Shown here piece after piece: positions 1,121 through 3,545 of a stretch of 30,326 bases of DNA (its first letter is position 1; every line of letters begins with the position of its first letter). Origin of the DNA: Candidatus Thorarchaeota archaeon (GTDB lineage: Archaea; Asgardarchaeota; Thorarchaeia; Thorarchaeales; Thorarchaeaceae); assembly GCA_029855935.1 (NCBI GenBank), contig JAGSHN010000013.1, forward strand, positions 1 to 30,326, read 5' to 3'. Position numbers and translations under genes: made by a program. Below the pieces are notes generated by a model. That model had not been told where the DNA came from. It saw only the letters and a program-made list of their open reading frames with translations, and made no database searches.

Positions 1121-2116
1121 TTGACAACTGGGACGCGACGGCACCGTCGTCGCTATATCCCCCATCTTGCTGAATTCTATTTCCGTCCGGCCTACGACTG
1201 GACTGTCGACAAGGCGCGCACACTCTATGAGCAGTCACCGACGACAGTCGGGCCATATGCCGTTGATCGGACATACTACATGGACTGTGTCGATGGAATG
1301 AGCCGGCTCCCGGACCACTCGGTAGACCTTGTCATCGCGGATCCTCCCTTTGGTATTGACTTTGACGGGCGGAGCGGAGCGTACAATCGTGATGACTCAC
1401 TTGTCGTTGATGGATATGGCGAGGTCGGTGAGAACTACCTTGAGTTCACCGAGGCATGGGTGGATGAGATGGCACGTGTCCTGCGGCCCACTGGCTCGGC
1501 GTACATCTTCAGCGGCTGGACAAACCTTGAGGCTGTTCTGAGGGCAGCGAGACTCGCCGGCCTGCACGTGCTGAATCACATAGTCTGGCATTACCCCTTT
1601 GGCGTGTTCACCCGTCGCAAGTTTGTCACCAGTCACTATCACATCATTCTCGCAGTGCGAGACCCTGATAGATACTTCTTCAACAAGATCGAGAACTATC
1701 CACAGGATGTGTGGACACTACGTCGGCCGTACCATCCGGGGAGGTCGAAGAACGGTACGAAGCTCCCGGTCGAGTTGGTGCAGCGATGCGTGGACTACTC
1801 ATCCCGTCCGGGCGACCTTGTACTTGATCCCTTTATGGGTAACGGCACCACAGCGGTCGCAGCCAGAGGTTCTTGGCGTCACTATCTTGGGTTTGAGGTC
1901 AATGAGCGTCTGCGTGCGGTCATCGACCAGGAGGTGTCCCATGTTCGTCTGGGTGACCTCTACCAGCCCTATGTGGAACGACTGCCCTCCATTGCCGAGC
2001 TGGCTGAGGCGTATCCGCGTGCCTTTCGTGAGTTTCTCGCCCGTGAGGGCATCAGCGAGGAAGAGGCTCTCACTATGGTCCGAACAGTGACAGGGGGCGG
2101 TCCAGAGGGTGACTGA
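1121..2116 (+). CDS. Site-specific DNA methyltransferase (N6A/N4C, beta class), no adjacent restriction nuclease
   Basis: Catalytic motif IV IADPPF precedes motif I VLDPFMGNGTT, which is the beta-class order; also TKLPVELV. The ORF is open from 1028. TTG at 1121 follows GAGGGTGG and is the preferred start; ATG 1079 is an alternative. Confidence 0.88.
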   Translation: MTTGTRRHRRRYIPHLAEFYFRPAYDWTVDKARTLYEQSPTTVGPYAVDRTYYMDCVDGMSRLPDHSVDLVIADPPFGIDFDGRSGAYNRDDSLVVDGYGEVGENYLEFTEAWVDEMARVLRPTGSAYIFSGWTNLEAVLRAARLAGLHVLNHIVWHYPFGVFTRRKFVTSHYHIILAVRDPDRYFFNKIENYPQDVWTLRRPYHPGRSKNGTKLPVELVQRCVDYSSRPGDLVLDPFMGNGTTAVAARGSWRHYLGFEVNERLRAVIDQEVSHVRLGDLYQPYVERLPSIAELAEAYPRAFREFLAREGISEEEALTMVRTVTGGGPEGD

Positions 2117-3545
2117 TGAACTATTCCGTTTCATGGCAGAGGAGCGGGACCGGCTCTCGGATGTCACTTCCGCGGGCGACATACTAGACCGACAGTACGG
2201 CCCCGAACTCACATCTTGGGAGCGCAGCCTAGTCAGGGGTTTTGAGGAGCGACTCTCTGGCCGACTCTATCGACATCGCGGGTTCGTACATCACACCCGC
2301 AACAGCTCGATGTTCGTTCTCACGCCAAGCCCATGGCTGGTCGATGGTGTGTTCGTCCACGTCCCCGAGGGAACGACCATTCCACCCGATGGCTCATTTG
2401 TTGAGATCATTGGCTCTCGTGCGGCGGTCCGACGATCTGCTCGACAGTCCGCAGAGCCCGTTCCCGTGTTTGTCGCAGAGTCGATTGAACTCCTCCCGAT
2501 GGACTTCCTCAACGATGTTCAACCTCCTCTCGACCTTGACGAGATCTCTTCACTGCTCTTCGAACGTGTCGGACTGCCTGAGGCCAGCAAGAGGGTCTTC
2601 TCGCTGCTCTTTGCATCGAGTCCCCCCTTTGAGGGGGCAGTGGGTGGGCTCAGTACTGGGATCGAGGTCCTTACCTCTCAGCGCAGGGTTCAGAGGCTAC
2701 TGACATTTCTGAGACGAGTGCTGCCATCATCTCTGCGTTCAAGTCCTGCTCGTTACACAAGAGTGCGGGGAGTTCCTGTCTTGGTTCCCAGACTGTGGCG
2801 TCTCGATGCGGGACAGCTGTCCCCGTCACGTCTCCGTGCGATCTGTGTGCACAGGCACGACCCCTCCGGCTTCAGGGAGGTGTCGGTGGGTGCTCTGACC
2901 GACGCAACGACCTCTGCGTTGCCAGACGTACCATTGGCACTGACATCCGAAGACTTCTGGGTCGACACGCGTGATGCCACCGACCTTCGCCTGCCACTCA
3001 TCAAGTCCATCATCACCTTTCAGATGCTGACGCCGTCGGTCTCACGAAGGTCGGTGGACGCTGCAACATCGCACATCCTTGAGCGCCTCCAGCGACTGCG
3101 TGACAGCATGGGGCTTTCTGACTCTGTCCTTGCCCGAGGCAACATATTGGACGCGGATGCCCTAGGCCGTCCACTGAGTGCCCTTCGGCTTGCCAGGGCC
3201 GTTGCACGTTCCGGCTGGTCAACACAAGTCAGGGCCCGCGAGATTCGGCGTGCGTGGGACAGAATACTGGAGCCTGCCCTCAGGGAGTTCATTGAGATTC
3301 ATATCCTCCGCTCTGAGGGTCAGACCGAGTGGGGAACTACAAGGGTCTACGAACAGCTGGACTCCCGTGTCCTCCGTGCACTGAAGCGCCTTGACCCAGG
3401 CACGGGCGGGTCTCTTGGTCCCACCACTGAGGAGATTGCACAGGAGGCGGGTGTGGAGATCTCAGTCACATCTCAGGCGCTGGAGAAGATGAAGAATGCC
3501 GGGGTGGTATACGAGCCACGGCCCGGCCACTATAGGCCTGTCTGA
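2109..3545 (+). CDS. Degenerate MCM-like protein (OB-fold remnant, eroded AAA+ core, AAA lid, C-terminal winged helix)
   Basis: Segments resembling MCM occur in MCM order: PPDGSFVEIIG..FVAESIE; LFERVGLPEASKRVFSLLF; LIKSIITFQMLTPSVS; RPLSALRLARAVARSGWSTQV; EKMKNAGVVYEPRPGHYRPV. No Walker A or Walker B is visible. The GTG start overlaps the MTase end by 8 nt. Confidence 0.65.
   Translation: MTDELFRFMAEERDRLSDVTSAGDILDRQYGPELTSWERSLVRGFEERLSGRLYRHRGFVHHTRNSSMFVLTPSPWLVDGVFVHVPEGTTIPPDGSFVEIIGSRAAVRRSARQSAEPVPVFVAESIELLPMDFLNDVQPPLDLDEISSLLFERVGLPEASKRVFSLLFASSPPFEGAVGGLSTGIEVLTSQRRVQRLLTFLRRVLPSSLRSSPARYTRVRGVPVLVPRLWRLDAGQLSPSRLRAICVHRHDPSGFREVSVGALTDATTSALPDVPLALTSEDFWVDTRDATDLRLPLIKSIITFQMLTPSVSRRSVDAATSHILERLQRLRDSMGLSDSVLARGNILDADALGRPLSALRLARAVARSGWSTQVRAREIRRAWDRILEPALREFIEIHILRSEGQTEWGTTRVYEQLDSRVLRALKRLDPGTGGSLGPTTEEIAQEAGVEISVTSQALEKMKNAGVVYEPRPGHYRPV

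Follow-up and report, generated by a model that had tools for sequence, protein, structure and literature searches.

In eukaryotes, one archaeal MCM has given rise to six catalytic paralogues and to non-catalytic relatives, and the MCM-derived proteins MCM-BP and MCMDC2, which lack the ATPase residues, act by binding rather than by unwinding. Here, we describe an open reading frame (ORF) encoding a 478-residue protein (P0002) that directly follows a gene for a DNA methyltransferase (MTase) in a window of 30,326 nucleotides, this being the whole stretch of DNA that was analysed, from a Candidatus Thorarchaeota archaeon (GCA_029855935.1, contig JAGSHN010000013.1, forward strand; GTDB lineage Archaea; Asgardarchaeota; Thorarchaeia; Thorarchaeales; Thorarchaeaceae). 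Judging from its predicted structure and from its missing catalytic motifs, this ORF is a non-catalytic, apparently inactive paralogue of the replicative MCM helicase, as an earlier note made from the sequence of this stretch had proposed.

As a general kind, an inactive archaeal MCM homologue already has a published precedent, since M. kandleri MCM2 (MkMCM2; PDB 3f8t; Bae et al. 2009) is presented in PMC3972481 as a catalytically inactive archaeal MCM homologue that has been crystallised. With its 506 residues, MkMCM2 is similar in size to the MCM-like protein, and it was the second-best representative when our model was scanned against 48,161 representative PDB chains (Z 16.3, root-mean-square deviation (rmsd) 6.7, 301 residues aligned). 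The two sequences matched only in the lid region, with an E-value of 0.16, which gives no sign of a specific sequence relationship. In PMC4619765, MkMCM2 is depicted as having subdomains A, B and C, whereas the MCM-like family has the OB fold only and, unlike what is noted for MkMCM2, ends in an MCM-type winged helix and is a core gene throughout the Thorarchaeaceae.

When compared with canonical archaeal MCMs (S. solfataricus MCM (SsoMCM) 4fdg/6mii, archaeal MCM 8x7t and the P. furiosus MCM AAA+ structure 4r7z), the order of OB fold, AAA+ core, lid and truncated winged helix is common to both, whereas the MCM-like protein is ~210 residues shorter, lacks subdomains A and B, the Walker A and B motifs and an arginine finger in its place, and falls under the Pfam cut-offs for every MCM domain. 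The parallel with MCM-BP and MCMDC2 is one of logic, drawn from general background: neither of them is among the PDB matches listed, and we claim no likeness beyond the general MCM fold, nor any orthology. No published description of the MCM-like family was found in the literature searched, which does not by itself prove that none exists.

Predicted fold and loss of the ATPase motifs

The model of the MCM-like protein built from an 82-sequence alignment, which also took in distant relatives, was of good quality, with a predicted local distance difference test (pLDDT) score of 88.7 and a predicted template modelling (pTM) score of 0.82. Its top 50 Foldseek matches were all MCM subunits (E 1e-12 to 5e-10, probability 1.00), and VIA-align gave Z-scores of 16-19 against MCM2-7, archaeal MCM and MCM8/9 over 290-370 residues, corresponding to residues 43-400 or 43-478 of the model. 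Independently of Foldseek, the scan of representative PDB chains placed members of the MCM family at all of ranks 1-11 (MCM2-7, archaeal MCMs, MCM8/9 and MkMCM2; Z 13.2-16.7 over ~300 residues), while the non-MCM AAA+ proteins of the same clade scored well below them (RavA 11.6, a MoxR-like ATPase 10.3 and BchI 9.3). The C-terminal tier taken alone matched MCM7 (6sko_7) with a Z-score of 16.8 and an rmsd of 3.7 for 223 residues over positions 137-397, and 8q6p_7 with a Z-score of 17.5 and an rmsd of 4.0. The predicted fold is thus MCM-like well beyond the winged helix (Z 16-19 over ~300 residues) and extends over the OB fold, the AAA+ core and the lid. With 30 close homologues alone, a first model reached a low pLDDT of 62.8 and was replaced; its top Foldseek matches were already all MCM.

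In the predicted structure, the parts follow one another in the order of the MCM family, from the OB fold through an AAA+ core of the MCM type to the lid (Table 1). The pair of strands that the earlier note had read as belonging to an OB fold turned out to be the last two strands of that fold (residues 97-107 and 118-128), and the helix that it had placed ahead of the AAA+ core was recovered in the model as helices at residues 143-169. In the structure matches over residues 43-396, the OB fold was aligned with that of MCM, and it also matched PriB and SSB (Z ~8). Only ~45 residues lie ahead of it, and both subdomain A and the Zn-finger insert are missing. A hidden nuclease fold was looked for in the structure scans and none was found in the predicted structure, where the MCM fold covers residues 43-478.

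In sequence comparisons, significant homology to MCM was detected for the last lid helix and the winged helix, again as the earlier note had read them. When a 45-sequence alignment of the family was compared with 17 Asgard MCMs using hhalign, residues 357-478 of the family aligned with MCM residues 563-686 (probability 95.8%, E 7.3e-9), and a profile of 30 homologues matched PDB MCM chains over the same last lid helix and winged helix. With the 82-sequence profile, the best matches in the PDB were SsoMCM (4fdg, E 9.5e-10), an archaeal MCM (8x7t, 1.2e-8) and the SsoMCM winged helix (2m45, 2.8e-7), followed by weaker matches to Mcm7, MCM8, Mcm4 and the winged helix of archaeal RPA32. The family profile also picked up true MCMs, at their C-termini, in other genomes of the survey sample described below, and some distant relatives gave sub-threshold MCM_lid, MCM_C or MCM_WH_arc matches of their own (MCM_lid in P0135). 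Scans of the 478-residue protein against Pfam, NCBIfam and PADLOC returned nothing over threshold and only sub-threshold matches, at its C-terminus, to winged-helix models. The profile alignments of residues 1-356 with MCM, which did not reach significance, were collinear, an observation to which we gave no weight. As a separate observation, the winged helix of the family (residues 401-478, window 3309-3542) matched the C-terminal winged helix of Pyrococcus abyssi RPA32 (E 3e-6 to 6e-5); since the latter is a protein-interaction module, this match would fit an adaptor role.

The catalytic motifs were then counted in 82 members of the MCM-like family, the most distant ones included, and in the 17 Asgard MCMs. 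Scored as GxxGxGK[ST] or in its MCM form GDPGxxKS, Walker A was found in 0/82 members of the family versus 17/17 of the MCMs. Neither a Walker B motif nor an arginine finger was found in its place in any of the 82 members: rare DE[FY]D and SRFD strings are off-position, the SRFD strings, where present, sitting in the linker before the winged helix, away from the position of the arginine finger. As for the Zn finger, CxxC occurs in just 2/82 members and the alignment has no conserved cysteine column. These four elements are the ones that the earlier note had not seen in this one protein. The positions that are conserved family-wide are mainly structural glycines and prolines with a few polar residues (R28, E38, G58, P73, P92, G102, S170, P172, G179-G180, E257, D273, P309, G353, P355 and R367). 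Since all the motifs for ATP binding and hydrolysis are lost, the MCM-like protein could not act as a motor. An intact canonical MCM of 688 residues is encoded, in one copy, on another contig of the same genome (contig 17).

Table 1. Features of the MTase/MCM-like locus, with positions in the window and residues of the MCM-like protein
Feature	Window positions	Residues	Strand	Basis
Predicted ATPase-dead MCM paralogue, 478 residues (P0002)	2109..3545		+	Model, structure scans, motif counts
Short helical N-terminus		1-45	+	Model
OB fold, corresponding to MCM N-terminal subdomain C	2244..2501	46-131	+	5-6 strands, pLDDT 85-97
Degenerate AAA+ alpha/beta core, without P-loop, Walker B or arginine finger	2517..3041	137-311	+	Structure matches
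AAA+ lid and long connecting helix, including GRPLS...RLAR...AR	3045..3332	313-408	+	hhalign, MCM_lid sub-threshold
MCM-type truncated C-terminal winged helix	3354..3542	416-478	+	4fdg and 2m45 profiles; 2m45 Z 8.7, rmsd 1.6
Beta-class N6/N4 DNA methyltransferase	1121..2116		+	PF01555 E 1.3e-35; PADLOC MTase_II E 9e-54
MTase catalytic motif IV, DPPF	1340..1351		+	Invariant across 28 aligned relatives
MTase S-adenosylmethionine-binding motif I, DPFMGNGTT	1826..1852		+	Invariant across 28 aligned relatives
Overlap of the MCM-like GTG start with the MTase stop, 8 nucleotides, GTGACTGA	2109..2116		+	ORF coordinates
Gelsolin-domain gene, convergent neighbour kept across the family (context only)	3567..4175		-	Family scan, synteny

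A core gene, probably inherited vertically

The family profile was run on 151 genomes of the phylum, 27 of which belong to the GTDB family of the window, its own genome included. The MCM-like gene was single-copy, full-length and uninterrupted in 27/27 genomes of this family. Outside of it, the sample contained one strong match, in another Asgard family, and the one genome of the same order that belongs to a different family gave no match. Beyond this sample, ~200 homologues of 477-512 residues, nearly all of them of 477-484 residues, share ~50-61% identity with the MCM-like protein; those that are named come from metagenome-assembled genomes of Thorarchaeota or Promethearchaeota and are labelled as hypothetical proteins. 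An exhaustive search of 1.84 billion representatives with a hidden Markov model returned 81 proteins, many of them full-length relatives (446-492 residues) at ~17-32% identity, and the distant relatives that are named belong to Odinarchaeota, "Asgardarchaeia" and Methanomethylicia.

The surroundings of the gene are also stable. In the window, it is flanked by genes for Trm5/TYW2, a gelsolin-domain protein, an M20 peptidase, a luciferase-like oxidoreductase, Ham1, Get3/ArsA, a radical SAM enzyme and TFB, and the gelsolin, M20, luciferase-like and Ham1 genes are syntenic across the loci of the family. These gene families are of an ordinary chromosomal, housekeeping type and no integrase is found among the flanking genes of the window, which bears out what had been noted from the sequence. 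The MCM-like gene thus behaves as a vertically inherited core gene under strong purifying conservation. Gelsolin and, in genome G016, actin, whose gene (L062:3-1154) lies directly upstream in the place of the MTase gene, are eukaryotic-signature cytoskeleton genes that stand beside the MCM-like locus by synteny.

Archaeal viruses and plasmids often carry MCM genes, and one may consider that the MCM-like protein is a domesticated mobile-element protein, with an origin in the replication or regulation of a virus or plasmid, that now serves, rather than in replication, mainly as a winged-helix-based regulator of transcription or chromatin. Among the seven distant relatives whose gene surroundings were examined, two lie in mobile-element-like contexts: one (L095, 831-9336) is accompanied by a tyrosine integrase and a 718-residue DUF927/primase-like gene, and the other (L093, 2197-10810) by an ArdC-like anti-restriction gene, an IS110 transposase and many ORFs without a family. 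The best PHROG match, too, is to a family of viral MCM-type helicases. The five remaining relatives, however, are found in ordinary chromosomal contexts, and the Thorarchaeaceae gene is chromosomal, single-copy and universal in the sample, with housekeeping flanks that lack an integrase, so that we regard such a mobile origin as quite unlikely. One of the relatives, from Methanomethylicia (L072:4810-9718), has Cren7 on one side and, on the other, a Cdc6/Orc1 gene with TFB after it; no other replication-related neighbourhood was seen, and this one is a single case.

The adjacent methyltransferase

The MTase gene offers three in-frame start candidates (TTG 1028, ATG 1079 and TTG 1121) ahead of its TGA stop at 2114-2116, and the alignment of its orthologues begins near residue 38 of the longest ORF, close to TTG 1121. 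Its PF01555 score is 123.8 bits for a cut-off of 26.7, and the nearest solved structures are those of beta-class enzymes, among them CcrM (1.1e-23), M.MboIIA and M.RsrI. Motif I lies downstream of motif IV, which is the beta-class order. Among amino-MTases, N6-adenine enzymes typically carry D/N-PP-Y/F, and N4-cytosine enzymes SPP-Y/F. From its motifs, the MTase looks active and, with its DPPF, is probably an N6-adenine enzyme. It has the motif order, DPPF and FxGxG in common with CcrM-like and other orphan beta-class MTases, whereas its score falls far under the CcrM equivalog cut-off (108 versus 830 bits). At its N-terminus (window 1121-1240), an extension YIPHLAEFYF.P..DW precedes the catalytic core and is conserved in all relatives, and a basic stretch rich in K/R precedes this extension.

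An MTase followed by an unannotated partner has the classic look of a restriction-modification (R-M) system, and AAA+ proteins do occur in defence systems, so that the 478-residue protein could be thought of as the effector of an R-M or other defence pair; the earlier note had entertained a nuclease-free defence or regulatory system. BrxL was indeed a structural match, although a weak one (Z 8.5). Yet the MCM fold accounts for nearly the whole protein without leaving a nuclease domain, the motifs that would power an effector are missing, and PADLOC assigned zero families to P0002. No candidate endonuclease was found beside the MTase either, the genes checked being those for Trm5/TYW2 and gelsolin, plus the MCM-like partner. 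Furthermore, the MCM-like gene is universal, single-copy and in stable synteny rather than patchy as genes of a defence island, and it persists where the MTase is absent. We consider a defence pair very improbable, and would advise against labelling the adjacent MTase as one half of an R-M system.

A second MTase locus is present in this genome (contig 3, L075:3026-6634) and consists of two back-to-back PF01555 genes (3026-4231 on the + strand and 4418-5554 on the - strand), beside which lies an ORF of 395 residues without a Pfam match (5447-6634, + strand). The second-locus MTase is 56% identical to that of the window. This second locus may be a real R-M system.

In the window, the MTase stop overlaps the GTG start of the MCM-like ORF, as had been read from the sequence. 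This start is credible because homologues align at their N-termini with the residues encoded ahead of the first internal ATG. Because of the overlap, the two genes are very probably co-transcribed in the window genome. The overlap itself is peculiar to this genome, the two genes being separated by ~30-60 nucleotides at homologous loci (33 and 59 nucleotides in L001 and L003). A scan of the locus for sigma-70 promoters and terminators found nothing, with a model that is ill-suited to archaea.

Directly upstream of the MCM-like gene and on the same strand, a PF01555 gene was found in 22/27 genomes of the family and in four public contigs (L001-L004), and the MTases that adjoin the MCM-like gene form one clade (support of 87 in the Shimodaira-Hasegawa-like approximate likelihood ratio test, SH-aLRT). 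In the remaining 5/27 genomes, a ferredoxin-domain gene or actin precedes the MCM-like gene, and the only related MTase of each lies on another contig among unrelated genes. In the MTase tree, four of these five unlinked MTases group with the second copy of the window genome and one groups with the MTases of other Asgard families. That they would be relocated orthologues of the linked MTase is not borne out by this placement in other clades, which means that the linked clade is missing from those five genomes. None of the seven distant relatives has an MTase neighbour. Conversely, MTases sharing 47-54% identity with that of the window are frequent in Asgard families that yielded no MCM-like protein (in f4, 12/13 versus 0/13). 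The tree of the MCM-like protein is poorly resolved at its base, where one gain of the MTase and several losses are indistinguishable. When the MCM-like protein was co-folded with the MTase, the score was 0.00 in a run without controls, which carries no weight either way.

These results bear on the possibility, raised in the earlier note, that both genes form a true two-gene module linking DNA methylation to replication control. In such a module, a dead MCM scaffold would target or tether the MTase to DNA or to forks, or would read the methyl mark to time replication in the manner of CcrM or of Dam/SeqA. Same-strand adjacency in most genomes of the family, a single clade of linked MTases, which suggests long co-residence, and the overlap of the two genes in the window are what one would expect of such a module. 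Still, in five genomes the MCM-like gene is retained although that MTase clade is missing, the distant relatives do without an MTase neighbour, and related MTases exist in Asgard families in which the MCM-like protein was not found. Since the whole neighbourhood is syntenic, the adjacency also partly reflects descent. Altogether, the module strikes us as rather doubtful, and the idea of an obligate pair is not supported: the pairing is conserved in 22/27 genomes and is absent from five and from the seven distant relatives. We conclude that the MCM-like protein is independent of the MTase, which is a frequent and dispensable accessory neighbour rather than an obligate partner.

Possible roles and further relatives

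Considering the parts that are predicted to remain, namely the OB fold, the AAA+ alpha/beta scaffold, the lid and the truncated winged helix, and those that appear to be lost, namely subdomains A and B and the ATP motifs, this vertically inherited, non-catalytic paralogue would be a passive binding protein. Its OB fold, together with its MCM-like surfaces and winged helix, would bind DNA and/or replication factors that interact with MCM, and the protein may in this way act as an adaptor, a decoy or a regulator of the single canonical MCM of the genome or of factors that bind MCM. We favour this reading, with the MTase as an accessory, and consider it reasonably probable. We infer the binding role from the retained parts, since their counterparts in MCM serve to contact DNA, in the case of the OB fold, or are involved in regulation and in contacts with partners. 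The winged helix of archaeal MCM is needed for Orc1-dependent recruitment. It is also known, as the truncated C-terminal winged helix, to modulate the ATPase of archaeal MCM (PMC4357721).

Several points weigh against this adaptor, decoy or regulator role. Outside the lid and the winged helix, the homology to MCM rests on the predicted structure: in the hhalign comparison with the 17 Asgard MCMs, residues 1-356, the OB part and the middle part gave no significant match (E 0.26-0.43). Replication genes are not among the conserved neighbours of the MCM-like gene. The same-strand, short-gap adjacency to the MTase gene described above is still compatible with a functional link between the two, a link that we regard as secondary.

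The dead paralogue could also be engaged more directly, as a genuine partner of the replicative helicase, being a non-catalytic subunit, a cap or a loader/unloader whose MCM-like surfaces and winged helix would contact the MCM ring or Orc1/Cdc6. It would then be an archaeal counterpart of MCM-BP-type proteins, reflecting a pre-eukaryotic division of labour between paralogues, and it would be coupled to adenine methylation by the co-transcribed MTase in most members of the family; we hold this stronger version to be unlikely. The MCM-like protein would be a concrete and phylogenetically well-placed candidate for studying how, and at what point, MCM paralogues came to specialise, and one that can be tested for MCM regulation.

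Non-motor derivatives of MCM would, on this evidence, be an established theme in archaea, found in 27/27 Thorarchaeaceae genomes and with relatives in Odinarchaeota, other Asgard archaea, Methanomethylicia and some mobile elements, and ~200 "hypothetical proteins" could be annotated as MCM-like pseudo-ATPases. A search by shape in the ESM Atlas returned true MCM clusters as well as three clusters of archaeal "hypothetical proteins" without Pfam matches (464, 139 and 81 members; template modelling scores of 0.46-0.54), which are commonest in Methanobacteriota. From their predicted shapes, these three clusters may be further degenerate MCM-like families.

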